DNA from: an uncultured Planctomycetia bacterium
Lineage (GTDB): Bacteria; Omnitrophota; Gorgyraeia; Duberdicusellales; 4484-171
Assembly: GCA_964536865.1 (NCBI GenBank)
Contig: CAZHYN010000008.1
Location: 1 to 32,000 of the forward strand
DNA: 32,000 bases
Reading direction: 5' to 3'
The notes under the pieces are model-generated. The model saw only the letters and a program-made list of their open reading frames with translations. It was not told the DNA's origin and searched no databases. The translations under genes were made by a program, and so were the position numbers. Positions 3,159-31,387 of this stretch are shown piece after piece; the first letter of the stretch is position 1; each line of letters opens with the position of its first letter.

Positions 3159-3163
3159 ATTGA

Positions 3164-3880
3164 ATGCAAGTAAAGCTCCTTTCTTATACTCAAAACCCTA
3201 AAGCAGTAATATATGCTTGTGCTCGTCAATGTTATTCTAAGCTTTCCGCTTATAATATTTATGTTAAGAAAGAAAATTTATCTAAAAGATTTAAGGAATT
3301 TATTACTCACCTTATAGAGCGAGGTCACCTAAGTCCCCTAGAGCATGTAAGTTTTACTTTCTCTATAGAAGGTATTTCTCGTGTTTGTACTCACCAGCTG
3401 GTTAGACATCGTATTGCTTCATACTCTCAACAGAGTCAGCGCTATGTAGACATGGAGAATTTTAATTATATTGTTCCTTTAGCAATAAAGAAGAATAAAA
3501 AGGCAAAAAAAATTTTTTTAGAAATAATAGCTACCGTTAAAGAGAAATATCGAGAGTTAAAAGAAATTTTAGAGAAAGATAAGACACTTAATAAAGAAAA
3601 GCTTAATCAAGATCTAAGATTTATTTTACCCCAAGCAGTAGAGACAAAGATAGTAGTAACTATGAATTGCCGAGAACTCTTGCATTTTTTCTCGGAGAGA
3701 TTATGTTTACGGGCTCAGTGGGAGATAAGAACGTTGGCTTATAAAATGTTTTCTTTGTGTAAACGAATTCTTCCTGAAGTGTTTTCTCTTGCTGGACCAA
3801 AATGCAAAAGAATGGGATTCTGTCCTGAGAAGGCGTTTGATTGTCCACTTTTTCCAGATAAACTTGACAAGAAAAAATGA
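3164..3880 (+). CDS. thyX: FAD-dependent thymidylate synthase
   Basis: The ThyX signature RHRIASYSQQSQRY (RHRxxSxxxxSxRY) is present, together with LEHVSFTF. Length is 238 aa. Confidence 0.95.
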   Translation: MQVKLLSYTQNPKAVIYACARQCYSKLSAYNIYVKKENLSKRFKEFITHLIERGHLSPLEHVSFTFSIEGISRVCTHQLVRHRIASYSQQSQRYVDMENFNYIVPLAIKKNKKAKKIFLEIIATVKEKYRELKEILEKDKTLNKEKLNQDLRFILPQAVETKIVVTMNCRELLHFFSERLCLRAQWEIRTLAYKMFSLCKRILPEVFSLAGPKCKRMGFCPEKAFDCPLFPDKLDKKK

Positions 3881-3892
3881 ATCTGATATACT
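3864..3892 (+). promoter_or_regulatory. Near-consensus promoter for the B12 riboswitch-btuB transcript: TTGACA-N17-TATACT with TGn
   Basis: TTGACA is at 3864-3869, TGa at 3884-3886 and TATACT at 3887-3892. It overlaps the thyX stop. The predicted start lies about 25 nt before riboswitch P1. Confidence 0.5.
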
Positions 3893-3923
3893 CAAAAAGT
3901 TCTTTTATAATAAAAGTTAACTT

Positions 3924-4191
3924 CTTTGTGGTGCCTTTTAAGGCTTAATAGGGAACCTTGTGGAAGTCGAGGACACTCCCGGTGCTGTGATGGGGGACGA
4001 AAGGTGCTATTTCTCCGACATTCGTCGGAGTGAAGTGTTACTATCCCGCCCTTTCTATTGAATTTCTATTGAAAGGGCGGGATGGGGAGACGCACCGAGC
4101 TCGCCAAAGGTAGCAAACTTACCAAAAGTAGGCAAGCCCGCGGAAGGCGAGCAAGTAGGATGATCCCAGAATCAGAAGACCTGTCACAGAG
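3924..4191 (+). promoter_or_regulatory. Cobalamin (B12) riboswitch aptamer, with a large internal insertion
   Basis: P1 pairs CUUUGUGG (3924-3931) with UCACAGAG (4184-4191). The conserved UUAAUAGGGAAC core lies near 3945-3956. A B12-box-like AUCAGAAGACCUGUC lies at 4171-4185. Extra hairpins are CTCCGAC-attc-GTCGGAG (4013-4030) and a 13-bp stem at 4043-4083. It sits directly upstream of a TonB-dependent receptor, the classic btuB context. Confidence 0.85.
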
Positions 4192-4259
4192 ATCAGTTTA
4201 GGTTTTAACGAGGATTAAAACCTAAAAATTCATTTGGGGCTAAAGAAAATCAGGGTGCA

Positions 4260-4292
4260 CCCCCTATACCGTAAGGGTATAGGGGGTTTTTT
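4260..4292 (+). terminator. Intrinsic terminator (riboswitch expression platform)
   Basis: An 11-bp stem CCCCCTATACC / GGTATAGGGGG with a 5-nt loop is followed by T6 (4287-4292). Upstream, GGGG (4235-4238) could pair with the terminator's C-run as an antiterminator. The RBS AAGGAGGGGG follows. Confidence 0.8.
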
Positions 4293-4321
4293 ATTGATAA
4301 CTTTAAGGAGGGGGTATCCTT

Positions 4322-6142
4322 ATGAAGAAATGGATAATAGGGTGTATTCTAATTATCTTGGTTAATAAAGTTTCTTACGCTCAGGAGATAGAGTTAGGAC
4401 AAATAGTAGTGACTCCTCACCGCACAGCAACCAGTCTAGATGTTGAACCTTTCTCGTTAGAAGTTCTCAATATTAAAGAAGCTAGCAAAAAAGGTGAATT
4501 TACTCTCCAAGAGGTTCTTAAAGGGATTTCTGATTTAGGATATGCTACAACTTCTCAAATGGGGGAGGCGAGCATATTTATAAGGGGGACAGATGCTCGT
4601 CATACCCAAGTACTTTTAGAGGGAATAAAACTTTATGATCCTGTTTCTACTACTGGTTATTTTTACGCTTATAATTATATAGACTTATTTCCTTTTCAAA
4701 GAGTAGAAGTAGCTAAAGGTCCTTTTAGTTCCTTGTACGGTTCAGATTCTATAGGAGGAACGATTAATTTGATAACTAAAAAAGGAAAGGGTAAACCTAG
4801 TCTTTCTTATCTTCAGGAGTTAGGAAGCTATGCTACCTTTAAAGAAGCATTTATTTATCAGGGAGAGATAAATACGTTTTCTTATTTTCTTTCTCTCTCA
4901 AGGACAGATGTAAACTCTTTTTATGCTCAAAGATATAAGGAGGGGAATCACGAGAAAGACCCTTATCATAATTTTAACTCTTCCTTGAGACTAGATTACA
5001 ACTTTGACGACGATCTAGATATAACTCTTCTTAATCATTACATCTATTCAAAATACGAATATGATGCCACTAATTCAGATGATGACGATAATATTGCTCA
5101 TTTCTATCAGGGAGTGAGTGGAATCAAAATTCAAAGTGTTCCTTCTGAGAAGGTATCCCAGGAGTTTCAAGTGGGTTTTACTAGGACTTATCGCAAACAT
5201 TGGGAAAGTTCTTCTGTCAATTACTGGTATGATGGAAAGAGTTATCAGATTAAATATAAATTAGACTATCAACTTCTTAACTTTTATAAAATTATATGGG
5301 GAATGGACTACTTAAGAGAAAAAGGGGAAGGAAAGTATTCTGGTTCTTCTAATCCTGATAAATCCACAGCTAATAGTAAAGGTTATTACCTTGAGAATAT
5401 ACTTACTCCTTTTCCTACACTCTTTATTTCAACTTCTTACCGCTTAGAGGACCATTCTAACTTTGGTACTACAGGGGTATTTAATACTTCAGCAAGTTAT
5501 ATAATAGAGAATACTTCTACCAAGATAAAATCTTCTTTTGGGAAGGGTTTTAAAGCCCCTTCCTTATATCAACTCTACAGTTCTTATGGAGATCCTAATT
5601 TAACTCCCGAGAAATCAGAAAGTTATCAGATAGGGATAGAGCAGAGCCTGTTTAAAAGATTAAAGTTTTCATCAACTTATTTTCATATCCATCTTTCTAA
5701 TCTCATTGATTTTAATATGACAACTTGGAAGTACTACAATACCGGTAAAGCTAAAATTGAAGGGTGGGAGAATAAATTAGAATATAGTCTATCAAAGGAA
5801 ATCAGACTTAAATTATCCTATGCTAATATAGATGCTGAGAAGAAGGAAGATGGCTCAAGACTTTTAAGGAGACCAAAGAATAAAGCAATTTTAGCATTAG
5901 ATGTGTTAAAAGATAGGCTTAAAATTTATCCTGAGCTTACTTATGTAGGGAACCGGATTGATAGTGGAGGAGAAAAATTAAAAGCTTATCTTTTAGTTAA
6001 TCTTTCTTTAAACTTTGAACTCTATAAGGATTCGCATTTTTTTATTCGTCTGGAAAATCTTTTAGATAGAGACTATGAATTGGTTAATGCTTATCAGAGT
6101 AAAAAATTCTCTTGGTACATAGGGGCAAAATTCAGATTCTGA
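4322..6142 (+). CDS. btuB: TonB-dependent outer-membrane receptor, BtuB-like (vitamin B12 uptake inferred from the riboswitch)
   Basis: A signal peptide is followed by a TonB-box-like QIVVTPHR. Plug-domain motifs are IRGTDARHTQVLLEGI and LYGSDSIGGTINLITK. The barrel ends in a terminal aromatic (..GAKFRF). A strong SD is present. Confidence 0.85.
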   Translation: MKKWIIGCILIILVNKVSYAQEIELGQIVVTPHRTATSLDVEPFSLEVLNIKEASKKGEFTLQEVLKGISDLGYATTSQMGEASIFIRGTDARHTQVLLEGIKLYDPVSTTGYFYAYNYIDLFPFQRVEVAKGPFSSLYGSDSIGGTINLITKKGKGKPSLSYLQELGSYATFKEAFIYQGEINTFSYFLSLSRTDVNSFYAQRYKEGNHEKDPYHNFNSSLRLDYNFDDDLDITLLNHYIYSKYEYDATNSDDDDNIAHFYQGVSGIKIQSVPSEKVSQEFQVGFTRTYRKHWESSSVNYWYDGKSYQIKYKLDYQLLNFYKIIWGMDYLREKGEGKYSGSSNPDKSTANSKGYYLENILTPFPTLFISTSYRLEDHSNFGTTGVFNTSASYIIENTSTKIKSSFGKGFKAPSLYQLYSSYGDPNLTPEKSESYQIGIEQSLFKRLKFSSTYFHIHLSNLIDFNMTTWKYYNTGKAKIEGWENKLEYSLSKEIRLKLSYANIDAEKKEDGSRLLRRPKNKAILALDVLKDRLKIYPELTYVGNRIDSGGEKLKAYLLVNLSLNFELYKDSHFFIRLENLLDRDYELVNAYQSKKFSWYIGAKFRF

Positions 6143-6863: not shown

Positions 6864-7667
6864 ATGGTAAGAAAACCCGCGGTTAGTGGTCAATTTTATC
6901 CTAAAACTTCTAAGGGAATAAAAGATTTCATCTCTCAGTGGGTGAGTTCTTCTCCAGTTAAAGTTTCAGCAAAAGGAGTAATTCTGCCCCATGCGGGGTA
7001 TATATATTCTGGTAAGGTAGCAGTTGTTACGTGTGCGAGGATCCTTCCTCGTAAGCGAGTAGTTATCCTTGGTCCCAACCATACTGGATTGGGAGTTGAG
7101 TTTAGTATTTATCCCAAGGGGCTATGGGAGATACCTCAAGGGAATGTAGAAATAGATGAGGAATTAGCCCAGGAGATTCTTCATGAAGGAAACTTCATAG
7201 AAGAGGATTTTTTAGCTCATAAATTTGAACATTCCATTGAAGTAGAACTTCCTATTTTAAAATATTTTTTTAACGAGTTTAAATTCGTTCCTATCATATG
7301 TGCGACAGCTTCTCTAGATACTTACAGAAAAGTAGCTCAGCAGATTTATCGAGGGATAAAAGAAAAAAAAGAAGAGATATTAATTGTAGCTAGCAGCGAT
7401 ATGACTCATTACGAAGAGGATGCCCAAGCGAGAAAAAAGGATAGTTTAGCTATTGAGGCTATTATTAATCTAGATGAAGTAGAACTCCTTCAGAGGATAA
7501 GGAAGGAGAATATCTCTATGTGTGGAGCAGCGCCTGTTTCTATAATGCTTATTTTAACTAAACTTCTTGGTGCTAAGAAAGTGGAGGTCGTTAGTTACCA
7601 AACCAGTGGAGAAGTGAGTGGTGATTATAGTGCAGTTGTAGGGTATTTAGGGGCTTTAATAATTTGA
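6864..7667 (+). CDS. amrB: AmmeMemoRadiSam system protein B (Memo-like)
   Basis: The N-terminus reads RKPAVSGQFYP. Other motifs are ILPHAGYIYSG, LGPNHTG, SSDMTHY and CGAAP, typical of the Memo/AmrB family. Length is 267 aa. Confidence 0.85.
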   Translation: MVRKPAVSGQFYPKTSKGIKDFISQWVSSSPVKVSAKGVILPHAGYIYSGKVAVVTCARILPRKRVVILGPNHTGLGVEFSIYPKGLWEIPQGNVEIDEELAQEILHEGNFIEEDFLAHKFEHSIEVELPILKYFFNEFKFVPIICATASLDTYRKVAQQIYRGIKEKKEEILIVASSDMTHYEEDAQARKKDSLAIEAIINLDEVELLQRIRKENISMCGAAPVSIMLILTKLLGAKKVEVVSYQTSGEVSGDYSAVVGYLGALII

Positions 7668-19283: not shown

Positions 19284-19780
19284 GAATTCTTGTACTTTCC
19301 GATACCCATATTCCTTTTACTGGTAGAAAGTTACCCTCAGAAGTAGTAGAGGAGGCTAAAAAGAGTAACCTGTGTATTCATGCAGGTGATTTTGTGGAAT
19401 ATTCCGTATTTGAGGAGTTGTCCTCTTATGTTAGAACTTACGGAGTATGTGGGAATATGGACAATAGTGAAGTAAGTGAGAAGTTGCCTTATCGTCAAAT
19501 TATAGAGATAGATAAAATTTGCATAGGAGTTATACATGGTAGAGGAGCACCTTATAATTTAATTTCTTTTGTTAACGATAATTTTAAAGACGTTTGGAAT
19601 AAAATTGATATTTTTATTTTTGGACATTCTCATTCTCCTCTAAATAAAAAGATAGGAGATAAAATTTATTTTAATCCAGGTTCGGTTATGGATAAATTGT
19701 TCGCTCCTTACAATTCTTATGGAATTTTAGAGATAAAAGCAGGAAAAGTTAATCCTAAGATTGTGAAATTGAATACCTAA
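19280..19780 (+). CDS. yfcE: YfcE/MJ0936-family metallophosphoesterase
   Basis: The motifs ILVLSDTH, HAGD, GNMD, IFGHSH and NPGS are present. Length is 166 aa. It has an ATGA overlap with the upstream gene. Confidence 0.8.
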   Translation: MRILVLSDTHIPFTGRKLPSEVVEEAKKSNLCIHAGDFVEYSVFEELSSYVRTYGVCGNMDNSEVSEKLPYRQIIEIDKICIGVIHGRGAPYNLISFVNDNFKDVWNKIDIFIFGHSHSPLNKKIGDKIYFNPGSVMDKLFAPYNSYGILEIKAGKVNPKIVKLNT

Positions 19781-20286: not shown

Positions 20287-21434
20287 AAAACTGGGAAGAA
20301 AATATGCTTGCTCCCTACGCTATGAAAAGTAGTCACTCTAAGGGACGTAAGTACAAGGAGGAAGAGCATCCTTATCGATCAATTTATCAGAGGGATAGAG
20401 ATAGAATTATTCACTGTGCAGCTTTTAGAAGATTAGAATATAAAACTCAGGTTTTCGTTTATCACGAAGGAGATTATTACCGTACTCGATTGACTCATAC
20501 CTTGGAGGTTTCTCAGATTGCTCGCACAATAAGTAAAGCCCTTAAGTTAAATGAGGATCTCACCGAAGCTATAGCCCTAGCCCACGATTTAGGTCATACT
20601 CCCTTTGGTCATGCAGTAGAAGATACTTTAGATGAGTTGATGCGTGAAGAAGGAGGATTTAATCATAATATTCAAGGGTTAAGAGTAGTGGACATTTTAG
20701 AGGAAAGATACCCTCACTTTAAAGGACTCAATCTTTCATGGGAGACTCGAGAAGGTATTCTCAAGCATTCTACAGATTTGTCTAAGAAAGATCTTTTAAG
20801 AGAGTTTTCTGAATTGGAACCAGAAACCCATCCTACTTTGGAGGCTCAAGTTATGGATGTTGCTGATGAGATTGCCTATGATAGTCACGATTTAGATGAC
20901 GGTGTAAAATCAAGAATGCTTATGCGAGAGGAGTTAAAAAACATAAAGTTATGGCGGTACAATGAAGAGAAGGTTAATAAAGAATATTCTAATCTTCCTC
21001 GTGAACTTAAAGACTATCTTATAATTAGAAATTTTATAAATTTACAGGTAACTGATCTTATCAAAAACAGTCTTAAAAATATTAAGAAGATGGGGATAAA
21101 TTCTCCTAATGATGTAAAGAAGATTCCTATACGACTAATCTCATTTAGTAAGAGTATGCAGGCAGATAGAGAAGAATTAAGACGGTTCCTTTTTGAAACT
21201 CTTTATTGTCACTGGAGAGTTTTGAGAATGTCAGATAAAGCTAAGCGGTTTATTAAAGCTCTTTTTTATGTGTATTTAAATAATCCTGAGATTATCCCTC
21301 CAAGCTTTAGAAAAAAAGTAAGAAAAGATTCCAAAGGTTTAAAGAGGATAATATGTGATTATATAGCAGGAATGACTGATCGTTATGCTTTAGAGGAATA
21401 TAAGAAATTATTCGATCCTTATGAAAGGGTATAA
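20265..21434 (+). CDS. dgt: dGTPase-like deoxyguanosinetriphosphate triphosphohydrolase family protein (HD domain)
   Basis: The sequences RSIYQRDRDRIIH..AFRRL..KTQV, RLTHTLEVSQIAR, AHDLGHTPFGH and DVADEIAYDSHDLDD are present. Length is 389 aa. Confidence 0.85.
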   Translation: MLTRKEIENWEENMLAPYAMKSSHSKGRKYKEEEHPYRSIYQRDRDRIIHCAAFRRLEYKTQVFVYHEGDYYRTRLTHTLEVSQIARTISKALKLNEDLTEAIALAHDLGHTPFGHAVEDTLDELMREEGGFNHNIQGLRVVDILEERYPHFKGLNLSWETREGILKHSTDLSKKDLLREFSELEPETHPTLEAQVMDVADEIAYDSHDLDDGVKSRMLMREELKNIKLWRYNEEKVNKEYSNLPRELKDYLIIRNFINLQVTDLIKNSLKNIKKMGINSPNDVKKIPIRLISFSKSMQADREELRRFLFETLYCHWRVLRMSDKAKRFIKALFYVYLNNPEIIPPSFRKKVRKDSKGLKRIICDYIAGMTDRYALEEYKKLFDPYERV

Positions 21435-22449
21435 ACAGATTTTTTCATCTTTCCATGCACTCTATCGATTAACAGCCTCTTTCACTAAAATTGAGGAGTT
21501 TGTTATGGGAATAGCTAAAGTGTATGCACATACTTTCAAAGCAAACACAGTAATTTTAGTTTGTAAATCTTTTAATTCCTCAAAATTGCTAAAAGTAAAA
21601 TTTTATAATGAAAGATGGAGTATCAAAAAAGGGGGACTTTCCATTTTGACTGAGAGAGAGAAGAAAATCATTGAAGGTGAAGAAGAAATTTTATTAGAGC
21701 ATAGATTGATATCTCCTTTTATATTCGTAGATACATTAGGGGCAATCTATGTTAAGAATAGAAATGCTCCCTTTACTGAGATAGAAAAAAGGTTATTTGT
21801 AGCCCTTACAGAACAAGTAGGCGTTTCTCTTAAGCTCGTTAGTTTGTTTATAGAAGAGAAGAAGAACGTACTAACTTATATTAAAGCTTTTTCTCAACTT
21901 TTAACCCAACATGTACCAACATCTTATATTCATTATAAAAGGATATCTAAACTTATAAGAGAACTAGCTAAGGATATGCATCTAACTGAAGCAGAAAGGA
22001 AATCTTTAGAATTTGCTTCTTTACTTCACGACGTAGGGAAGATAAATCTTCCTGTGAATATCCTGAAAAAACAGGAGCCTCTCACTGAAGAGGAATTTCG
22101 TATGATCACGAAACATCCACGGAGAGGTGTAGAACTCATAAAAGATTTAAAGATTTTAAAACCAGTTATTCCTATTATCTTGCATCATCATGAAAGATAC
22201 GATGGCAAAGGCTATCCTTCTAAGTTGAAGAAAGAAGAAATTCCTTTGGCTGCTCGGATACTGGCGGTGATAGACGCTTTTGATGCTATGTTTTTTGGGC
22301 GTCCTTATAAAAGGAAGATGAGTCTGGAAGAAATTGAAAGAGAATTAAAAAAGCAGGAGGGAATCCAGTTTGATCCTCGTGTAGTAGAAACTTTTCTTAA
22401 TATATTGAAAAAGAGACGGATTAGAAAATACTTGAATTCGTTAGAGTAG
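21421..22449 (+). CDS. GAF-like / HD-GYP domain protein (predicted c-di-GMP phosphodiesterase)
   Basis: The HD-GYP signatures LLHDVGK, HHHERYDGKGYP and DAFDAM are present. They follow a roughly 150-aa N-terminal sensory-like domain. Confidence 0.85.
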   Translation: MKGYKQIFSSFHALYRLTASFTKIEEFVMGIAKVYAHTFKANTVILVCKSFNSSKLLKVKFYNERWSIKKGGLSILTEREKKIIEGEEEILLEHRLISPFIFVDTLGAIYVKNRNAPFTEIEKRLFVALTEQVGVSLKLVSLFIEEKKNVLTYIKAFSQLLTQHVPTSYIHYKRISKLIRELAKDMHLTEAERKSLEFASLLHDVGKINLPVNILKKQEPLTEEEFRMITKHPRRGVELIKDLKILKPVIPIILHHHERYDGKGYPSKLKKEEIPLAARILAVIDAFDAMFFGRPYKRKMSLEEIERELKKQEGIQFDPRVVETFLNILKKRRIRKYLNSLE

Positions 22450-25662: not shown

Positions 25663-25691
25663 TTGACAAATAGATAAAAATATGTTATACT
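25663..25691 (+). promoter_or_regulatory. Near-consensus promoter of the PilZ/radical SAM operon: TTGACA-N17-TATACT with TGn
   Basis: TTGACA is at 25663-25668, TGt at 25683-25685 and TATACT at 25686-25691. A roughly 55-nt leader with the strong SD AAGGAGAAGGG follows. Confidence 0.6.
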
Positions 25692-25718
25692 AAAATTCCT
25701 AAATTTTAGAGATAGGTC

Positions 25719-25732
25719 TGAAAACGTTTTCA
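25719..25732. promoter_or_regulatory. Perfect 14-bp palindrome TGAAAACGTTTTCA (LacI/CcpA cre-like operator) in the operon leader
   Basis: It reads identically on both strands. It lies between the predicted start and the SD. It fits the cre-type consensus TGNAANCGNTNNCA from memory. Confidence 0.4.
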
Positions 25733-25752
25733 AAATATCTCAAGGAGAAGGG

Positions 25753-26079
25753 ATGAAGGAAAGAAGGAAGGATTTACGAGTAAAGGTTTCTTTTCCTGTA
25801 GAGTGTATAGTTCTACCTGAAAGAAGGAGTTTCTTTTACACTGTAAGTAAGGATTTAAGTTTAGGAGGAGTAAGAATTTTGAGCGAAAATTTCCTTCCTA
25901 AGAATCAAGAGGTGAGGGTAAATATTAACCTAATAGAAGAGATGGTCTTGATTAAAGCTAGAGTAGTGTGGTGTAGCAAAGAGCGATGCTCGGAAAGGTA
26001 CTCCGCAGGTTTAAGGTTTTTAGAGATTAATGAAAAAGATAGAACTAATTTGAACAACTTTATAAGAAAGGTATCCTAA
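25753..26079 (+). CDS. PilZ domain protein (single domain)
   Basis: It carries RRKDLR (RxxxR) and DLSLGG (DxSxxG). Length is 108 aa. Confidence 0.85.
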   Translation: MKERRKDLRVKVSFPVECIVLPERRSFFYTVSKDLSLGGVRILSENFLPKNQEVRVNINLIEEMVLIKARVVWCSKERCSERYSAGLRFLEINEKDRTNLNNFIRKVS

Positions 26080-26081
26080 CA

Positions 26082-26228
26082 ATGGGGAAGAGCGAGGATA
26101 AAAGGAGAAATTGTTTAAACTGTAACAAGTCCTTGAGAAGAATAGATTGGTATTATAGAAACGGAGGATATTTCTGTAGTAAGAAGTGTTTTAAAACTTA
26201 TATTTCTAATAAAAAACAAATCTCTTAA
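26082..26228 (+). CDS. Unlisted 48-codon ORF: TRASH/zf-FCS-like zinc-ribbon protein
   Basis: The translation is MGKSEDKRRNCLNCNKSLRRIDWYYRNGGYFCSKKCFKTYISNKKQIS. It shows C-x2-C-x17-C-x3-C with the YFCSxxCF core. It starts 2 nt after the PilZ stop, and its TAA overlaps the next ATG (TAATG at 26226-26230). Confidence 0.5.
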   Translation: MGKSEDKRRNCLNCNKSLRRIDWYYRNGGYFCSKKCFKTYISNKKQIS

Positions 26229-26584
26229 TGCTAAAAGAAAAAAGGAGATATCCTCGCTTTACCTTCGCCCTCCCTATAAAGATATCTAATCAGGAGTTTG
26301 ATGTAGTTACTGAAACAAAAAATATAAGTGGCAACGGCGCCTACTGTTCTGTAGATAGAGAAATTCCTGTTATGACTAAGTTAAAAATCGTTCTTTTGAT
26401 TCCTTTAATTAAAAAAGGAAAAAGATTTTTGAAAAAGATAAATTGTAAAGGAGTAGTAGTAAGGTCCCAACCGATTCGTGACAATGGTAAAAATTTTTAT
26501 AATATAGGAATATTTTTCTCTGAGATAAATGAAGCTTATAGAAAAGTTTTACTTTCCTATATAAATTCTGCAGTTAAAAACTAA
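26228..26584 (+). CDS. PilZ domain protein (single domain)
   Basis: It carries RRYPR (RxxxR) and NISGNG (NxSxxG). Length is 118 aa. Confidence 0.85.
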   Translation: MLKEKRRYPRFTFALPIKISNQEFDVVTETKNISGNGAYCSVDREIPVMTKLKIVLLIPLIKKGKRFLKKINCKGVVVRSQPIRDNGKNFYNIGIFFSEINEAYRKVLLSYINSAVKN

Positions 26585-26599
26585 AGTACCATCCTTAAA

Positions 26600-27142
26600 A
26601 TGCTTAAACTTTCTTTACCTAAAAAAGTTAAGTTTATATGTGGGTTTATCTATTCGAACGAGGAAGATTTCTCTAAAATCAAGAAAATAATGGAGAAAAA
26701 GTACAAAGGTATAGATTATGAAAGTAAAGCAATAAAATTTGACTTTACTGATTACTATGCTAAGGAAATGGGAAGAAATTTAATAAGGAAGTTTTTATCT
26801 TTTAAAGTATTAATTAACCCTTCAGCTTTACTAAGGATTAAGCTATACACTCTTAAACTGGAGAGAAAATTTTCTTACCAGGGAAAGAGAAAGGTTAATA
26901 TAGATCCAGGATATTTGAATGATGCCAAGTTAGTTTTAGCCACTACTAAAAATTTTTCTCATCGTATATATTTAGGTAAGGGTATTTATGCTGAAGTTAC
27001 TCTTACTTATAGGAAAGGAGAATTTACTGATTTTTCCTGGACCTATCCTGATTATAGGATCCCTCAGTATAAGGATATTTTTTTAAAGATTAGAAATTTA
27101 TACCTTACTCAAATTAGATATGTTTCAAAGAAACAAAGATAA
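26600..27142 (+). CDS. DUF4416 family protein
   Basis: This 180-aa protein has the sequence NIDPGYLNDAKLVLATTKNFSHRIYL. It contains the GYL motif I recall as the hallmark of DUF4416. Confidence 0.55.
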   Translation: MLKLSLPKKVKFICGFIYSNEEDFSKIKKIMEKKYKGIDYESKAIKFDFTDYYAKEMGRNLIRKFLSFKVLINPSALLRIKLYTLKLERKFSYQGKRKVNIDPGYLNDAKLVLATTKNFSHRIYLGKGIYAEVTLTYRKGEFTDFSWTYPDYRIPQYKDIFLKIRNLYLTQIRYVSKKQR

Positions 27143-28052
27143 GATATATAAAATTAAAAAAAGATTAGATTATTTTTTGGCTCAATGGAGGAATTGCCAA
27201 TTATGCCCTCGTAAGTGTGGAGTAGATAGGTCAAAAGAAGTGGGTTTTTGCCAGATAAAGAATCTTTCTGTCTATACTGCCTTTATCCATAGGGGAGAGG
27301 AGCCTCCTTTAGTAGGAAAAAATGGAAGTGGTGCGATTTTTTTTTCAGGGTGTAACTTAAGATGCATTTACTGCCAAAATTTTAAGTTTTCTCATCTTTG
27401 CCAGGGTAAGATCATGAATGAACACCAATTAGCTAGTCTTATGCTTAAATTACAGGCTCAGGGAGCAGAAAATATTAATCTTGTAACTCCTACACATTTC
27501 CTACCACAGATTATAAAAGCTCTCCTTATAGCTTACCACCAAGGTTTAAATATCCCTATAGTTTATAATTCTTCAGGGTATGAGAGAACAGAAATTATAA
27601 AAGCTTTAGAAGGAATGGTGGATATATATTTGGTAGATATGAAGTATTTTACTTCTTCTGCTTCCTGGTTGGGTTCACATACTAAAGATTATCCTTTCTA
27701 TAATAGAAGGGCGGTAAAAGCAATGTATCAGCAGATAGATATTCCTTTCTGGGAAGATGGGCTTTTAAAAAGAGGTATAATTATAAGGCACTTACTTCTT
27801 CCTACTATGGTTAAGGAAGCTAAGCGTATTCTTTGGTGGATAAAGGAAAATACCCCTAAGGCTTATATAAGTATTATGTTTCAGTATCGTCCTTATTTTA
27901 AAGCATCATCCGTGCCAAGGTTAAATAGGCCCCCTAATTATGAAGAGTATTTAGAAGTAAAAAAGCTGGTGGAAGAGATAGAGCTAGAAGGATGGATCCA
28001 AGAGTTTAACCCTCCCGAAGAGTTAGCCGGTGTTTACTTTAACCCTTTTTAG
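27120..28052 (+). CDS. Radical SAM protein, PflX-like (COG1313-type homolog of PFL-activating enzymes)
   Basis: The radical SAM motif is CNLRCIYCQN (CxxxCxxC). It is preceded by the N-terminal cysteine cluster CQLCPRKCGVDRSKEVGFC. Length is 310 aa. Confidence 0.85.
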   Translation: MFQRNKDKIYKIKKRLDYFLAQWRNCQLCPRKCGVDRSKEVGFCQIKNLSVYTAFIHRGEEPPLVGKNGSGAIFFSGCNLRCIYCQNFKFSHLCQGKIMNEHQLASLMLKLQAQGAENINLVTPTHFLPQIIKALLIAYHQGLNIPIVYNSSGYERTEIIKALEGMVDIYLVDMKYFTSSASWLGSHTKDYPFYNRRAVKAMYQQIDIPFWEDGLLKRGIIIRHLLLPTMVKEAKRILWWIKENTPKAYISIMFQYRPYFKASSVPRLNRPPNYEEYLEVKKLVEEIELEGWIQEFNPPEELAGVYFNPF

Positions 28053-28077
28053 TTTTCACTTCTCAAATTTGAGTTTT

Positions 28078-28106
28078 TAGGTAAATTTTAGGTAAATTAG
28101 GTAAAT
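28078..28106. repeat. Three direct copies of TAGGTAAAT
   Basis: The copies lie at 28078-28086, 28089-28097 and 28098-28106, right after the radical SAM stop. They are preceded by the palindrome CTCAAATTTGAG (28062-28073). Confidence 0.7.
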
Positions 28107-28301
28107 ATAAGGAAGAATACATTACTAAGAGTAAATATCCCTTTTCTTATTCACAGGTTTTTATAGTCTTTATATAATTTTTTGATTTTCAATTAGTTAC
28201 AGAGAAAAAAGGTTATAATAAAAGTTTACATAAGATATATTATCGGAAGTAACAGAAGAATAAAAAGGGATTATTCGGTAGGATAAGATTTATGAATAAA
28301 G

Positions 28302-28467
28302 GCCGATAAGGGCCTTCTGTCTCGGCAGCTCAGCCACCCTAGTAGTCTCCAGGTGCCTAACTTGCTCACTATCTGGGGGCTAATAATTTAGTGAGCAACG
28401 GCTTCCTTAACTACCTTAGGTCTGTAGCTTTGCGTCCTCTGATTTCTCAGAGTTTGCCCTTATCGGC
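28302..28467 (-). ncRNA. c-di-GMP-I (GEMM-I) riboswitch-like RNA with no downstream ORF
   Basis: The minus strand reads GCCGAUAAGGGCAAAC-UCUGA-GAAA-UCAGA-GGACGCAAAGC-UACAGA-CCUAAG-GUAG...AGCUGCCGAGACAGAAGGCCCUUAUCGGC. It shares AGGGCAAAC, the GAAA-capped hairpin, GGACGCAAAGC, the CCUAA receptor half and 3' GCCGA with the Vc2 aptamer as remembered. A 12-bp closing helix pairs 28302-28313 with 28456-28467. Confidence 0.8.
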
Positions 28468-28474
28468 GTTATTA

Positions 28475-28504
28475 ATTATACAATATTTTTGTTCCTAATT
28501 TCAA
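28475..28504 (-). promoter_or_regulatory. Promoter of the riboswitch-like RNA: TTGAAA-N18-TATAAT
   Basis: On the minus strand, TTGAAA spans 28504-28499 and TATAAT spans 28480-28475. Seven nt (taataac) then precede the first G of the closing helix at 28467. Confidence 0.6.
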
Positions 28505-28530
28505 CCTTGCTTGAGAGAAATTTTACTATT

Positions 28531-28546
28531 TGTGAATTCATTCACA
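28531..28546. promoter_or_regulatory. Perfect CRP/FNR-type site TGTGA-N6-TCACA
   Basis: TTTGTGAATTCATTCACAAA has 9-bp inverted arms. The centre at 28538/28539 is about -71.5 relative to the predicted start at 28467. Confidence 0.45.
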
Positions 28547-28711
28547 AAGTTTTAACTAAGTTTATTAATTTAATTTTTATTTTTCTCTTTTTATTTTTTA
28601 GGGAGCTTATTTCTCCTGAGGTAAGTAGTGATATCCAGAGGTAGTACCCCCTAAAAAATTTAGAAAGATAGTTTTCATGTATTGGAATTCCTTCCTTTCA
28701 GGCCAAGGAGA

Positions 28712-29115
28712 CTAAAAGTATACTAAATGCAAGAATCTGGTGCAATTTCTATCTATTTTAGTCTTCAGAGAATCCACGAAAGGACTTCCTACTACTTCAT
28801 TATTTTGATTTTTCAAGATTATTCTATTCTTACAATGGATAACTCGGCCGCTAGGGGAGACGAAGGTCTCTTCCTCCCCTACTCCACTTGTAAGTATGTT
28901 GCCTACTTTTTAAAAGCCATGCGAGAAATATCAATTGCTTTATCCTTGGCTAAGGTAGAAATATTAAATAGATGAGATAGTACATTTTTCTCTTTTTCCA
29001 TTAATTGGATCAACTGAGAGGAGGAACTCTTTATAGTTATATCTTTAAACTCTGCCCAGGCAAATCTTGCTTCTGGCAACAATTTCCTAAGACGAGCACC
29101 TATTCTTATCTCCAT
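28712..29115 (-). pseudogene. Decayed B3/4-domain (COG3382-like) gene: N-terminal and C-terminal pieces in different frames, middle missing
   Basis: The ORF 28903..29115 (..LLPEARFAWAEFKDITIKSSSSQL...DKAIDISRMAFKK) resembles the N-terminus of solo B3/4 proteins. The next frame, from about 28906 to the stop at 28712-28714, reads VGNILTSGVGEEETFVSPSGRVIHCKNRIILKNQNNEVVGSPFVDSLKTKIDRNCTRFLHLVYF, which resembles the C-terminus. This is a recollection-based call. Confidence 0.4.
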
Positions 29116-29656
29116 CTTTTAATGTAGTTTTTAACTTTTTTAGAGTATTTTGATAAACTTCTAAATCAGTTTCAGAATAAAGCACAAGACGGATTCTTTT
29201 CACTTCTCTAAGTTCCTCAGCCACTTCTATTAAAGTTTGTAGAGAAATTTTAGCTGCTTCCTCTATAGGATAGCCAAAAGCACCGGTAGATATAGCAGGA
29301 AAAGCTATAGAGGTTACTTTATTCTTTTCAGCAAGAATTAGAGCATTTTTATAGCAGGAAGCCAAAAGTTTATCCTCAGGTCTATCTATTTTGTACCTTG
29401 GTCCTAAGCAATGGATTACATATTTATTAGGAAGGTTATAAGCTTTAGTAATTACAGCCTGACTTACCTTTATAGGGGCAAGTTTTTTGCATTCCTGATA
29501 AAGCAAGGGACCGCTAGCCTTATGTATCGCTCCTGCTACTCCTCCACCAGGAGCAAGATAAGCGTTAGCAGCATTTACTATAGCATCAAAACCAATTTGT
29601 TTAGTGATATCACCTTTTACACATTCCAGAGTTACATTTTTAATATTGATTATCAT
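29087..29656 (-). CDS. Macro domain protein (O-acetyl-ADP-ribose deacetylase/YmdB-like)
   Basis: The motifs GDITKQ..DAIVNAAN, GGGVAGAIH and IAFPAISTGAFGYP are present. Length is 189 aa. Confidence 0.88.
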   Translation of the reverse strand: MIINIKNVTLECVKGDITKQIGFDAIVNAANAYLAPGGGVAGAIHKASGPLLYQECKKLAPIKVSQAVITKAYNLPNKYVIHCLGPRYKIDRPEDKLLASCYKNALILAEKNKVTSIAFPAISTGAFGYPIEEAAKISLQTLIEVAEELREVKRIRLVLYSETDLEVYQNTLKKLKTTLKDGDKNRCSS

Positions 29657-29658
29657 CT

Positions 29659-30378
29659 TTAAATATCTTGGGAATATGTTAGATGTTTATTTATAAATTC
29701 TAAAATCTCTTTCTGTATTTCGTGATCGATGTTATAGAATTCCAAACCCATTCCTGGATACTCCAGAGGCTGGATTTCCCTATCTGCTACCCAGATTACT
29801 CTAGTGTCAATTTCTATAATGCCAGGTTTAGGAGATAAATTTATACGGGTTGAGAGTATCTCCCCTACAGAAAATATCTTCTTGGCTACGATAAATACTC
29901 CTATGGCGCTCAGATTCAAAACCTTTCCTTTATAGAAGAGATCTTTGGAAGAAAATTTTTGTTTATATTCAATAATGGCGTGGAAAGGAATCCTTCTAAA
30001 ACGTCTTCTAAGTTTTTTCTTTAGTATTCGGTAAATGCTTTCCTCCTCTTTTAGATACCTAATTGCCTCTTCTTCGTTACTATGGAAATTAAATACTTTA
30101 TTCAGTCCTACGAGAGTAAATATATTCTTAATGTGCGTAGGTACGTTACATATTTCCATCCTTCCTTTATGATTAAGAATATTTTTATATACTACAGCAA
30201 GAATGGAAATACCAATATAGTCTATTATATTTACCTTATTAAAGTTACATACAATATTTTTAGATTTATACTTAAGAACCCAACCAGCGGTTTCTACAAA
30301 ATTAGAAGCATTAATATCAATATTTCCTGCTAAATCAAGAATAGCCACACCATCTTTATCTCTCACATTAATCGTCAT
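29659..30378 (-). CDS. STAS (anti-sigma-factor antagonist-like) - PilZ fusion protein
   Basis: The N-terminal STAS fold reads VAILDLAGNID...NFNKVNIIDYIGISIL...ICNVPTHIKNIFTLVGL. The C-terminal PilZ carries RRRFRR (RxxxR) and NLSAIG (NxSxxG). I place the start at the ATG at 30378-30376, which forms an ATGA overlap with the uppP stop. The tracked start at 30411 lies inside uppP. Confidence 0.8.
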   Translation of the reverse strand: MTINVRDKDGVAILDLAGNIDINASNFVETAGWVLKYKSKNIVCNFNKVNIIDYIGISILAVVYKNILNHKGRMEICNVPTHIKNIFTLVGLNKVFNFHSNEEEAIRYLKEEESIYRILKKKLRRRFRRIPFHAIIEYKQKFSSKDLFYKGKVLNLSAIGVFIVAKKIFSVGEILSTRINLSPKPGIIEIDTRVIWVADREIQPLEYPGMGLEFYNIDHEIQKEILEFINKHLTYSQDI

Positions 30379-31109
30379 AAGAATACTGTTAGCACAGCTA
30401 ATACCAAACAATAATAGCCAAATTTATAAAGTTTACTCTCTTCTAAAAACTTTCTTAGAATACTTAGCGAACCTACTCCTACTAAGAAAGTTAGAATAAA
30501 GCTAAATATTAAAAGAGGACTACCCAATTTATATTGGAAAAGACTATTTGCTTCTACTAAGAAGGCTGCTAAGATTACAGGAATTGCTAGTAAGAAAGAA
30601 AAATTGAATGCCTCCCTTTTGCTAAGTCCTCTCCCCAAAGAAGCCACTATAGTTACTCCTGAGCGAGATATTCCTGGTAAGATTGCCAATCCTTGGAGAA
30701 TCCCTATCAAGATACACTCTTTAATAGAAAGTTCCTTAGCAAGTTTTTCGTCTCCTTTCTTAAAAAATAAAAGGATTAAGCTAGTAAAGAGAAAACCTAT
30801 TGCGATAAGTATTTTTTCTCCAAAGTAAACTTGAGCACTGATCATTATTAGATAGGCTAATAATAAAGTAACTAAAGAAGTTATAGTCAAATTTATGAGA
30901 ATTTTTCTATCTTGGATATAAGATATAATTTCTTTACGAAGATATACAATAATAGCTAATAGCGTAGCTAAGTGAAGATAAGTAAAAAAAGGTAGTGATT
31001 CGGATCTTACTTGAAGAATTCTCTCAGCAAGAAATAGGTGTCCACTACTACTTATTGGAAGAAACTCTGTGATCCCTTGAATTAGACTAAAAATAAAAAC
31101 TTCTTTCAC
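30375..31109 (-). CDS. uppP: Undecaprenyl-diphosphate phosphatase (BacA/UppP)
   Basis: The sequence GITEFLPISSSGHL is present, along with PGISRSG and multiple TM helices. Length is 244 aa. Confidence 0.93.
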   Translation of the reverse strand: MKEVFIFSLIQGITEFLPISSSGHLFLAERILQVRSESLPFFTYLHLATLLAIIVYLRKEIISYIQDRKILINLTITSLVTLLLAYLIMISAQVYFGEKILIAIGFLFTSLILLFFKKGDEKLAKELSIKECILIGILQGLAILPGISRSGVTIVASLGRGLSKREAFNFSFLLAIPVILAAFLVEANSLFQYKLGSPLLIFSFILTFLVGVGSLSILRKFLEESKLYKFGYYCLVLAVLTVFL

Positions 31110-31387
31110 TTTCCCATAGAGCTAGGGAATTTTACAAATAAAAATACTAAATAGGTAACTAGGATTATTCCTATTCCTAAAATAAAGTAAACTACAAGAC
31201 TATATGAATCTCTTTTGTAATGATAAGATGGGGATTGGTAATCGGTTTCTTTGTTTAAAAGTTGATTTAGTTTATTTCGACAATCTTCGCATATACACAA
31301 ATGTTCTTCTATAATCTGTACTAAATTTTGAGGTATGCTATGATTTATATAACCAGGAAAATTTTTTCTTATTTTCTGGCAATCCAT
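31106..31387 (-). CDS. ZAS-type (zf-HC2) anti-sigma-factor-like membrane protein
   Basis: The sequence HLCICEDC fits HxxxCxxC, and an upstream Cys3 is present. A single C-terminal TM helix follows. Length is 93 aa. It is coupled (ATGA-type overlap) to uppP. Confidence 0.55.
   Translation of the reverse strand: MDCQKIRKNFPGYINHSIPQNLVQIIEEHLCICEDCRNKLNQLLNKETDYQSPSYHYKRDSYSLVVYFILGIGIILVTYLVFLFVKFPSSMGK

Follow-up and report, generated by a model that had tools for sequence, protein, structure and literature searches.

The window, the whole 32,000-nucleotide stretch of DNA that was analysed, holds several predicted c-di-GMP receptors between positions 25,663 and 30,378, where plus-strand genes meet minus-strand genes. 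The features that bear on their interpretation, including one gene further upstream, are as follows.

21421-22449, plus strand: HD-GYP-type phosphodiesterase (Pfam HD_5, E 1e-43; HHERYDGKGYP readable)
25663-25691, plus strand: sigma-70-like promoter of the PilZ cassette (TTGACA-17-TATACT, TG-extended; an 11/12 consensus match only)
25753-26079, plus strand: PilZ protein 1, stand-alone, 108 aa (Pfam PilZ, E 4e-16; RKDLR, DLSLGG)
26082-26228, plus strand: four-cysteine zinc-ribbon protein, 48 aa (CxxC...FCSxxC)
26228-26584, plus strand: PilZ protein 2, stand-alone, 118 aa (Pfam PilZ, E 3e-11; RRYPR, NISGNG)
26600-27142, plus strand: DUF4416 protein (Pfam, E 9e-62; 6070 homologues)
27120-28052, plus strand: radical SAM protein, activase-like, the left replichore's last gene (Pfam Radical_SAM, Fer4_12)
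28223-28250, plus strand: predicted dif site, the XerC/D chromosome-dimer resolution site (28 nt, AGTTTACATAAGATATATTATCGGAAGT)
28292-28467, minus strand: c-di-GMP-I riboswitch RNA, apparently self-contained, ~175 nt (Rfam; predicted start and terminator)
28475-28504, minus strand: predicted promoter of the riboswitch RNA (TTGAAA-18-TATAAT, 11/12 match)
28607-29115, minus strand: B3_4-domain pseudogene (70-aa N-terminal ORF plus remnant)
29087-29656, minus strand: macro-domain protein (Pfam Macro, E 1e-40)
29659-30378, minus strand: STAS-PilZ fusion protein (Pfam STAS, E 5e-14, and PilZ, E 3e-13; RRRFR, NLSAIG)
30375-31387, minus strand: UppP (BacA) and a zf-HC2 anti-sigma-like protein (Pfam BacA, E 5e-56; zf-HC2, E 5e-5)

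Both promoters are consensus matches, and the promoter scan overall gave no enrichment over shuffles. The gene calls of the initial annotation largely hold. All three PilZ proteins are intact, with Pfam matches and readable RxxxR and (D/N)xSxxG motifs; the DUF4416, radical SAM, macro, uppP and ZAS-like assignments are borne out by Pfam matches to DUF4416, Radical_SAM, Macro, BacA and zf-HC2; and the window indeed lacks a GGDEF cyclase, the pattern G[GSA][DE]EF being absent from all six frames. The upstream phosphodiesterase keeps its HD-GYP assignment, but the GAF part once ascribed to it was not detected with Pfam. Its gene belongs to a HIT-dGTPase-HDGYP-SPOR-SH3-M50-DHQS block that is present in most loci with the PilZ cassette.

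The PilZ-zinc ribbon-PilZ-DUF4416-radical SAM gene set is an uncharacterised cassette of genuine conservation, present in dozens of Omnitrophota genomes and almost never together with the RNA. Under strict criteria the full cassette was found in 30 of the 62 anchor loci with enough flank, while a PilZ gene abuts DUF4416 in 47 of 66 loci and the zinc-ribbon gene lies between both PilZ genes in 45 of 66; the cassette is absent from the non-Omnitrophota loci of the DUF4416-anchored set. An orthologue of PilZ protein 1 is present in cassette loci, with both motifs kept in 28 of 30 orthologues, as they are in 56 of 57 for PilZ protein 2. The 48-aa ORF between them has no Pfam or NCBIfam match, though its CxxC...(F/Y/W)Cx3-4C pattern is conserved in 57/57 orthologues. 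The AlphaFold model of the DUF4416 protein (pLDDT 94) found no match in a PDB fold search, and the radical SAM protein has only activase matches in NCBIfam, all sub-threshold, with no match in a PDB sequence search. Like known PilZ receptors, the two small proteins have Pfam PilZ domains with intact RxxxR and (D/N)xSxxG motifs; unlike them, they are members of a fixed gene cassette that also includes a zinc ribbon, DUF4416 and radical SAM. Presumably they would inform the DUF4416/radical SAM pair of c-di-GMP status.

Right of dif lies a separate conserved operon, zf-HC2-UppP-STAS-PilZ-macro-(B3_4 pseudogene). Its upstream part is formed by the uppP and zf-HC2 genes, a block conserved in relatives, and in five related loci (L007-L011) STAS-PilZ always follows zf-HC2 and BacA. 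The STAS-PilZ start overlaps the uppP stop (ATGA) and is probably at 30378 rather than at the ORF's 30411, since homologues are 239 aa long. There are 158 of these, typically of that length and all from Omnitrophota where named, and both PilZ motifs are kept in 8/8 orthologues. Downstream, the macro-domain protein resembles O-acetyl-ADP-ribose deacetylases in NCBIfam, under the cut-off. The B3_4 gene is intact in L007 (222 aa); in the window it is disrupted by an internal deletion of 160 nt and by an in-frame stop. STAS-PilZ shares the Pfam STAS domain with anti-sigma-factor antagonists and differs from them in being a PilZ fusion, fixed behind zf-HC2 and UppP; it is presumably a c-di-GMP-sensitive anti-sigma antagonist.

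Between the B3_4 pseudogene and dif, 250 nt from the radical SAM stop and convergent to that gene, sits the RNA. It had been described as GEMM-I-like, and Rfam agrees, placing a c-di-GMP-I aptamer on the minus strand from 28468 to 28321 (73.2 bits, E 1e-12; gathering score 35). The predicted -10 element ends 7 nt ahead of the first base, and the RNA can be divided into a 5' strand (28467..28456), the aptamer (to 28321), a 3' strand (28313..28302) and a U-run (28301..28292). The first 12 nt are complementary to the 12-nt 3' segment directly before the U-run, and the minimum-free-energy fold contains this 12-bp closing helix (z = -4.7). The U-run itself (CUUUAUUCAU) is weak compared with relatives. 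On the same strand, no ORF of >=20 aa follows the RNA up to the radical SAM gene, and the ORF list has a single entry in that stretch, of 32 aa (28271-28369), which partly coincides with the RNA itself. Judged from these sequence features, the riboswitch RNA appears to be a self-contained gene with its own sigma-70-like promoter and no protein gene to control.

Compared with c-di-GMP-I/GEMM-I (RF01051, V. cholerae Vc2), the RNA has the full aptamer at 73 bits, the GAAA tetraloop hairpin, the CCUAAG-type receptor hairpin and the conserved GGCAAAC, GACGCAAAGC and GCUGCC segments, with the ligand-contacting G, A and C residues named in PMC4744006. It differs from Vc2-type riboswitches in lying outside any 5' UTR, without an ORF after it, in a second hairpin extended at its tip by a 63-nt insertion, and in an expression platform formed by long-range pairing of the first 12 nt with the 3' segment, so that the aptamer lies inside the ‘loop’ of the terminator.

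On the mechanism that we propose, the closing helix would serve as the stem of the terminator, and its uppermost 3-4 pairs would draw on G10, G11 and C12. These are the ligand-contacting G and the closing base pair of the first aptamer hairpin; G10 is presumably Vc2 G20, by our own reading of the Rfam alignment. Because these residues are shared, full closure and a c-di-GMP-bound core should be mutually exclusive, and ligand occupancy would determine how much transcription ends as a ~175-nt c-di-GMP-binding RNA and how much reads through. Transcripts that read through in the window would cross dif and extend, in antisense, over the 3' end of the radical SAM/PilZ operon. Alternative closing forms of 8 bp and 12 bp both abut the U-run, so termination may be ligand-independent, and any ligand dependence might run in either direction. 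The RNA is thus most likely either a ligand-gated terminator or a stand-alone c-di-GMP-binding RNA.

Metagenomes contain no fewer than 47 distinct RNAs of the same promoter-to-terminator design. All 47 family members examined share the promoter layout; in 44 of them the -10 ends 6-8 nt ahead of the RNA start. The closing helix is conserved in 47/47, with its 5' strand fixed by the search pattern; support for it therefore consists of complementarity and wobble changes only, and covariation is seen at position 12 alone in the family alignment, from which RNAalifold recovers the closure, P2 and P3. About two-thirds of the informative members (27 of ~41), in several lineages, have no downstream ORF and only a convergent gene. 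In 18 of these 27 that gene codes for an RR-GGDEF-MshEN cyclase, with the RNA terminator in antisense to its final ~10 codons. Another 11 family members precede a gene (an M48 protease, GH1 or others).

Riboswitches acting in antisense have precedents, for example the SAM riboswitch at ubiG-mccBA (C. acetobutylicum) and the B12 riboswitch/AspocR (Listeria), and a computational survey found antisense-located c-di-GMP-I riboswitches, a class among the commonest (PMC9943018). The RNA resembles these in being convergent to a gene's 3' end within 500 nt (250 nt in the window), and relatives in its family overlap the cyclase gene at its 3' end; it differs in that dif separates the RNA from the convergent gene, and regulation by read-through is a prediction here. 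The RR-GGDEF-MshEN cyclase pairing does not appear in the main text or the text-format supplementary files of that survey.

Alternatively, the RNA could be a pure c-di-GMP sponge or store that terminates constitutively and has no gene-control output, as proposed for the merRNA of Bdellovibrio bacteriovorus. That RNA, of 445 nt, is massively expressed, is reported to be restricted to Bdellovibrio, and is proposed to act by binding c-di-GMP instead of controlling a gene in cis (PMC3627812). By description, both are non-coding RNAs with a c-di-GMP riboswitch and no conserved downstream ORF; the window RNA differs in its length of ~175 nt, its Omnitrophota-wide family and the members that precede genes. 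A strong-looking promoter and 3' structures that both end at the U-run would also suit a sponge. We nevertheless consider it unlikely: the same expression platform stands before real genes in 11 members, where gating of read-through is required, and the exact placement of 18 members over the cyclase gene's 3' end points to an antisense link, not to buffering of a kind that could operate from any location.

A still less plausible reading makes the RNA a decaying remnant of a conventional riboswitch, with no present function and with its regulated gene lost by rearrangement at dif: the pseudogene directly beside it, the variable gene content next to dif, the gene-preceding relatives and a U-run degraded relative to L007 would fit, but the promoter (92%) and RNA (91%) are far closer to L007 than the flanks are (66% in the spacer upstream of the promoter, 53% in the 43 nt after the RNA), one stem change, in the inserted hairpin, is a compensatory G-C to A-U, and the ORF-less layout recurs across the family.

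The convergent junction itself is the replication terminus, marked by dif and a flip in GC skew. The reverse complement of B. subtilis dif matches the 28-nt site at 25 of 28 positions, and a similar site, with inverted arms, a 6-nt centre and one copy per locus, recurs with <=4 mismatches in 32 loci. GC skew flips at 28223-28250 in the window and, when loci are oriented by dif, its left-hand value exceeds its right-hand value in 14/14. As in B. subtilis (PMC3025954), a 28-nt site sits where GC skew switches and the two replichores converge; the window site, in contrast, is a predicted Xer target. A terminus with dif is by itself enough to account for two conserved blocks pointing at one another and for gene content that varies exactly at the junction. 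A second conserved motif, ATTCACAGGTTTTTATA, occurs ~68 nt left of dif in several genomes.

We therefore read the 4.7-kb region as the meeting point of two replichores rather than one system, with the RNA as an independent gene, at a probability of roughly 0.6. The initial annotation had instead seen the co-localised receptors as one undescribed c-di-GMP sensing module, with a shared output such as DUF4416/radical SAM or envelope functions. Conservation of the neighbourhood in relatives, which it proposed as a check, is largely missing: the adjacency of the cassette genes is upheld, but the RNA and STAS-PilZ are not joined to it. Two related loci, L003 (85% nucleotide identity) and L004 (65%), keep the whole plus-strand block and then differ beyond dif, with a glycoside hydrolase and DUF7575 after the cassette and neither riboswitch nor STAS-PilZ beside it; homology between the window and L003 stops at 28252, at dif. 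Of the 80 DUF4416-anchored loci, just 3 have an RNA of this design anywhere: in L017 and L029 it is no more than ~1.5 kb from the cassette 3' end or from dif, and in L025 it is 6 kb away. Most family RNAs adjoin GGDEF, M48, GH1 or DUF2062 genes, contexts unrelated to the cassette. The best case for a module is that the RNA adjoins the cassette 3' end in three lineages (window/L007, L017 and the L029 group) and that STAS-PilZ lies 3-6 kb from the cassette in L008 and L029. The orientation of the RNA varies, however, being convergent in window/L007, co-directional in L017 and after DUF2062 in the L029 group, and the adjacency fits inherited terminus synteny, with a functional link as the less likely reading. 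With the cassette mostly lacking the RNA, STAS-PilZ in the other block and homology breaking at dif, a single module is improbable. The three PilZ proteins would then be ordinary, independently encoded receptors; PilZ-type ORFs outside the cassette number ~2.3 per 100 kb across 53 related loci, so a third one within a few kb is not rare.

All of the parts that the initial annotation had assigned to a single, undescribed c-di-GMP sensing module are present in the window, as can be confirmed with Pfam and Rfam. These include three PilZ proteins.

PilZ proteins of the window
25753-26079, plus strand: PilZ protein 1, matching Pfam PilZ
26228-26584, plus strand: PilZ protein 2, matching Pfam PilZ
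29659-30411, minus strand: STAS-PilZ protein, matching Pfam STAS plus PilZ

Both the RxxxR and the (D/N)xSxxG motif can be read in each of the three, as had been claimed, and are kept by nearly all orthologues; with the domain and both motifs in place, these are three predicted c-di-GMP receptors. Other open reading frames match DUF4416, Radical_SAM, Macro, BacA, zf-HC2 and the HD-GYP-type HD_5. The last of these bears out one half of the proposed GAF/HD-GYP protein, in which no GAF domain was detected by Pfam, while the reported lack of a GGDEF cyclase agrees with the absence of a GGDEF-like motif from all six frames of the window. The small zinc ribbon encoded between the PilZ genes gave no match in a family search, and its four cysteines are retained in 57 of 57 orthologues. 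The RNA described as GEMM-I-like is a full-length c-di-GMP-I aptamer in Rfam (28468..28321, minus strand).

While the components were correctly observed, their interpretation as one module is not supported. Conservation was scanned in 80 loci drawn from a genome collection and anchored on DUF4416. The five-gene cassette of PilZ, zinc ribbon, PilZ, DUF4416 and radical SAM enzyme (rSAM) is conserved, but its grouping with the RNA and STAS-PilZ is not, as adjacency of the three is not kept in relatives. The RNA is missing from 77 of the 80 loci; L003 and L004, loci with about 85% and 65% nucleotide identity to the window, carry the cassette with neither the RNA nor STAS-PilZ beside it, and in the related locus L008 the cassette and STAS-PilZ blocks lie 6 kb apart and the RNA is absent. 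A neighbourhood without conservation, the outcome named beforehand as speaking against the proposal, is largely what was found. PilZ-type ORFs also occur outside the cassette at about 2.3 per 100 kb of the related loci, so that three PilZ genes in 4.7 kb are a weak signal. In a phylum rich in PilZ genes, the ‘dense neighbourhood’ amounts to a junction at the terminus and not to a new multi-receptor system.

The cassette belongs to a longer recurrent order in Omnitrophota-type loci, HIT-dGTPase-HD-GYP-SPOR-SH3-M50-DHQS-PilZ-zinc ribbon-PilZ-DUF4416-rSAM. A PilZ gene adjoins DUF4416 in 47 of the 66 loci with enough flank, the full cassette is found under strict criteria in 30 of 62, and these neighbours are absent around the DUF4416 genes of other phyla. 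STAS-PilZ sits in a separate conserved block, zf-HC2-UppP-STAS-PilZ. Its conservation, seen in four or more lineages, suggests a partner-switching element that responds to c-di-GMP and is linked to an anti-sigma-like protein. In the window and its relative L007, cassette and block lie on opposite sides of the terminus and converge on it; in L029 the gap between them is 3.4 kb. Named homologues of DUF4416 and STAS-PilZ are almost all from Candidatus Omnitrophota, and an ENA metagenome contig matches the window exactly from 17536 onward. Within the block (29659-31387, minus strand), the start of STAS-PilZ overlaps the uppP stop (ATGA, 30375-30378). The AlphaFold model of the DUF4416 protein has a pLDDT of 94; comparing its fold with the PDB returned nothing significant (best E 0.018, TM 0.34-0.38), a search of NCBIfam gave no match, and a literature search found no paper naming DUF4416. 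The cassette is a concrete starting point for giving this family a role. For the radical SAM enzyme there was no PDB sequence match, and the NCBIfam activase matches were all sub-threshold. It also scores 27 bits against the AmmeMemoRadiSam radical SAM family (cut-off 220), a match that is probably without meaning; a Memo-like protein is encoded at 6864-7667 on the plus strand.

The junction between cassette and block contains a 28-nt sequence, AGTTTACATAAGATATATTATCGGAAGT, at 28223-28250, which is predicted to be the dif site marking the replication terminus. Copies with no more than four mismatches occur in 32 loci, some of them from genomes that share only about 50% protein identity with the window. 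In reverse complement, the experimentally defined dif of B. subtilis (PMC3025954) is identical to the 28-mer at 25 of 28 positions, and both the 28-nt similarity and the inverted arms around a 6-nt centre that characterize a dif site are found. The site also lies at a switch in local GC skew, both in the window, where positive skew over the first 28 kb or so gives way to negative skew (cumulative maximum at about 28 kb), and in 14 independent loci oriented by the site, where skew is higher on the left than on the right in all 14 and negative on the right in 12. All genes of the window are on the plus strand up to 28052 and on the minus strand beyond, and nucleotide homology to L003 ends at 28252, two bases beyond the site. 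Convergent genes and variable adjacent content can both be understood because the junction is dif at the terminus; in L003 and L004, for instance, dif comes next after the cassette, with a glycoside hydrolase and a DUF7575 gene beyond it. The idea that the riboswitch lies upstream of these two genes in L003 and L004 and that the window has lost them was rejected. Within reach of the contigs of L003 to L005, Rfam did not find the riboswitch and tblastn found neither B3_4 nor macro. This assignment provides a terminus marker that can be used for Omnitrophota MAG assemblies.

Other features can be seen near dif. A second conserved motif, ATTCACAGGTTTTTATA, occurs at 28155-28172 on the plus strand, about 68 nt left of the site, and also in distant genomes (L004, L025, L029, L017, L106); its window copy falls on a promoter-like plus-strand site directed at dif (28150-28178, 11/12). 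Just past dif in the L029 group lies a gene for a NikA-like mobilisation protein (L029 12545-12757, minus strand; also L106, L128 and L137), which may be part of a dif-integrated element. The 1-kb ‘non-coding’ stretch on the right of the junction is mostly a pseudogene: L007 has an intact gene for a 222-aa B3_4-domain protein after macro (3106-3774), and the window copy (28607-29115, minus strand) has lost 160 nt internally and carries an in-frame stop, leaving a 70-aa ORF at 28903-29115 and a remnant to 28607. A permissive search of this stretch for other Rfam families returned c-di-GMP-I alone.

New here are the variant form in which a known riboswitch is packaged and a conserved, uncharacterised PilZ cassette. 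The RNA of the window is a self-contained gene as judged from its sequence, with a predicted discrete non-coding transcript, its own promoter and terminator, and no ORF.

Elements of the riboswitch RNA
28504..28475, minus strand: predicted promoter TTGAAA-18-TATAAT, ending 7 nt before GCCGAUAAGGGC
28467..28456, minus strand: 5' strand GCCGAUAAGGGC, the perfect complement of GCCCUUAUCGGC
28313..28302, minus strand: 3' strand GCCCUUAUCGGC, followed by CUUUAUUCAU

In the minimum free energy fold a 12-bp helix encloses the whole aptamer (-69.9 kcal/mol, z = -4.7), to which this closing helix contributes about 10 kcal/mol. A scan of 25.5-30.6 kb for intrinsic terminators returned none, the scan being one that needs a short local hairpin and is blind to long-range closure. 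The RNA lacks one defining feature of c-di-GMP-I riboswitches, a place in the 5' leader of a gene under their control. Between it and rSAM, its strand carries no ORF of 20 aa or longer other than one of 32 aa overlapping the RNA itself, and rSAM, which is convergent, ends 240 nt beyond the RNA (U-run end 28292, rSAM stop 28052); L007 likewise has no ORF downstream. A hidden small ORF in this spacer was also considered and rejected, since nothing outside the RNA reaches 20 aa and conservation of the spacer is only 53%. Identity between window and L007 is 92% in the promoter, 91% in the RNA and 100% in dif, against 66% in the spacer 5' of the promoter and 53% in the 43 nt from the U-run to dif. 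One change in the stem of an inserted hairpin is compensatory between the two, and the U-run is better in L007 (CUUUUUAUUUU) than in the window.

The aptamer scores 73.2 bits against RF01051 (gathering threshold 35, model positions 1-87), its L007 orthologue 66.8 bits against c-di-GMP-I, and ten relatives 51-68 bits. In the Vc2 riboswitch the ligand is contacted by G20, A47 and C92 (PMC4744006). At the ligand-contact positions, mapped by reading the Rfam alignment, AAGGGCAAAC, GACGCAAAGC and GCUGCCGAG agree with the consensus, and G11-C12 are paired with the GC of GACGC. We take G10 of the RNA to correspond to Vc2 G20, the G that contacts the ligand. The RNA can be regarded as a standard member of c-di-GMP-I that is predicted to bind its ligand. 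Its second hairpin is extended at the tip by a 63-nt insertion, and the 17-nt apical loop of this inserted hairpin (28375-28392, minus strand) contains AGCCCCCA, which is conserved in L007, the remainder of the loop being variable. Many genes of the window have G-rich Shine-Dalgarno sequences (GAGGGGG), and because of this we speculate that the loop could be an anti-Shine-Dalgarno-like seed. Most family members also share an internal loop, AAGCCGU / AGU(G/U)AGGCA, in the second-hairpin extension, outside the Rfam consensus (alignment columns ~82-90 and ~143-153, or about 28395-28403 and 28352-28362 on the minus strand of the window). A K-turn reading of it was set aside on inspection, the bulged strand lacking GA.

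RNAs of the same design are found elsewhere. A loose motif search of the anchored loci gave the same layout in L017, L025 and L029 and a conventional riboswitch in one locus, L061. Scanning metagenomes with a pattern made of the 5' strand and the core returned 92 stretches, among them 47 non-identical RNAs with promoter, closure and U-run. The -35 element is TTGAAA in 39 of the 47, and in 44 the -10 element ends 6-8 nt upstream of the first base. Closure positions 1-11 are paired in 45-47 of the 47 and position 12 in 37 (C-G, U-G or U-A), with positions 13-16 unpaired. RNAalifold recovered the closure and both aptamer hairpins from 36 members, with compensatory changes in 16 pairs, all within the hairpins; covariation of the closing helix cannot be judged from this set because the search pattern fixed the 5' strand, and complementarity far beyond chance is what argues for the helix. 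Ten members were confirmed with Rfam, two of which match best to the c-di-GMP-I-GGC variant model (L129 5787-5925 and L136 1901-2036), with GGCGCAAAG in place of GACGCAAAG. This change is common to many cyclase-convergent members, the window RNA being of canonical type.

The surroundings of these RNAs vary. Eleven members have a co-directional gene 10-134 nt downstream, encoding an M48/Ste24-like protease in five cases, GH1 in four, a GreA-like protein in one and another protein in one. The M48/Ste24-like protease and GH1 genes could be new additions to the c-di-GMP regulon of the phylum. The RNA directly precedes the protease genes in L025 (11748-11957, minus strand), L121, L148, L160 and L177, and the GH1 beta-glucosidase genes in L127, L129, L159 and L175. 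Eight members follow a DUF2062 gene and are directed at dif some 230 nt off; the window and L007 RNAs are directed at it from the opposite side. For twenty-seven members the only downstream gene is convergent, and in 18 of these it is a response regulator-GGDEF-MshEN gene. The RNA terminator overlaps the end of the cyclase gene in 18 relatives, as illustrated by L123, a layout seen in about 18 metagenome loci.

Layout of locus L123
3317-3491, plus strand: riboswitch RNA
3468-4928, minus strand: response regulator-GGDEF-MshEN cyclase
2209-3267, minus strand: DUF3187 outer-membrane protein

Here, the last ten codons of the cyclase (KKEKADKGL*) are antisense to the 3' strand and U-run of the RNA, and the ribosome-binding site of the DUF3187 gene lies under the RNA -35, so that the RNA is antisense to the spacer of the cyclase-porin pair.

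The boldest reading of these RNAs, tentative and with roughly one chance in three of being right, is that free-standing c-di-GMP-sensing sRNAs, each a unit from promoter to terminator, form a family in Omnitrophota, with the closing helix of the aptamer as the terminator. Rather than working as 5'-UTR switches, these would be ligand-gated regulators, cis-antisense or trans, or else buffers, mostly wired against the 3' end of a response regulator-GGDEF-MshEN operon and, in this genome, placed at the terminus facing dif and the PilZ-DUF4416-rSAM operon. The top of the closing helix would use G9-C12 and thus overlap G10 and G11-C12 of the ligand core; with G9-C12 shared by both structures, full closure and a ligand-bound core would be mutually exclusive. 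Once c-di-GMP is bound, about 8 bp (GCCGAUAA/UUAUCGGC) would be left beside the U-run. Such competition has the logic of an expression platform and, where genes follow, would have to gate read-through. Both forms of the helix end at the U-run, which would allow a response of either sign, and structural logic favours a terminator that is weakened by ligand. In the window, one output would be a c-di-GMP-binding RNA of about 175 nt and the other read-through across dif, antisense to the rSAM/PilZ operon; ligand control of such antisense action would come from the inferred competition between closure and ligand-binding core.

The closest functional precedents, by analogy, would be merRNA and the antisense-acting riboswitches. 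The merRNA of Bdellovibrio is an ORF-less c-di-GMP riboswitch RNA proposed to act as a sponge (PMC3627812), and for the window RNA a discrete transcript of this kind is predicted from its putative promoter and terminator and its lack of an ORF. Two antisense-acting riboswitches are known experimentally and 292 more have been proposed computationally, with c-di-GMP-I frequent among them (PMC9943018); the window RNA has the arrangement used there, being convergent with the other gene and no more than 500 nt from its 3' end. The main and supplementary texts of that study make no mention of a riboswitch-GGDEF gene pairing. The ORF-less c-di-GMP-I RNAs described here form a family of complete genes, in many cases overlapping a diguanylate cyclase gene at its 3' end. 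If they are ligand-gated antisense or sponge RNAs, the single case of Bdellovibrio merRNA would extend to a whole phylum, and a compact test system of about 175 nt would be available for closing-helix terminators. Wiring against the cyclase operon would, if true, amount to RNA-level feedback on c-di-GMP synthesis. Omnitrophota have been reported to include host-dependent nanobacteria.

Elsewhere in the window, positions 1-269 are 96% identical to 19314-19582 (reverse) at the far end of contig L001, a match that could reflect either a repeat or a join made in assembly. A cobalamin riboswitch (57 bits; 3912-4202, plus strand) lies upstream of a TonB-dependent receptor gene (4322-6142, plus strand), a classical BtuB-type arrangement.
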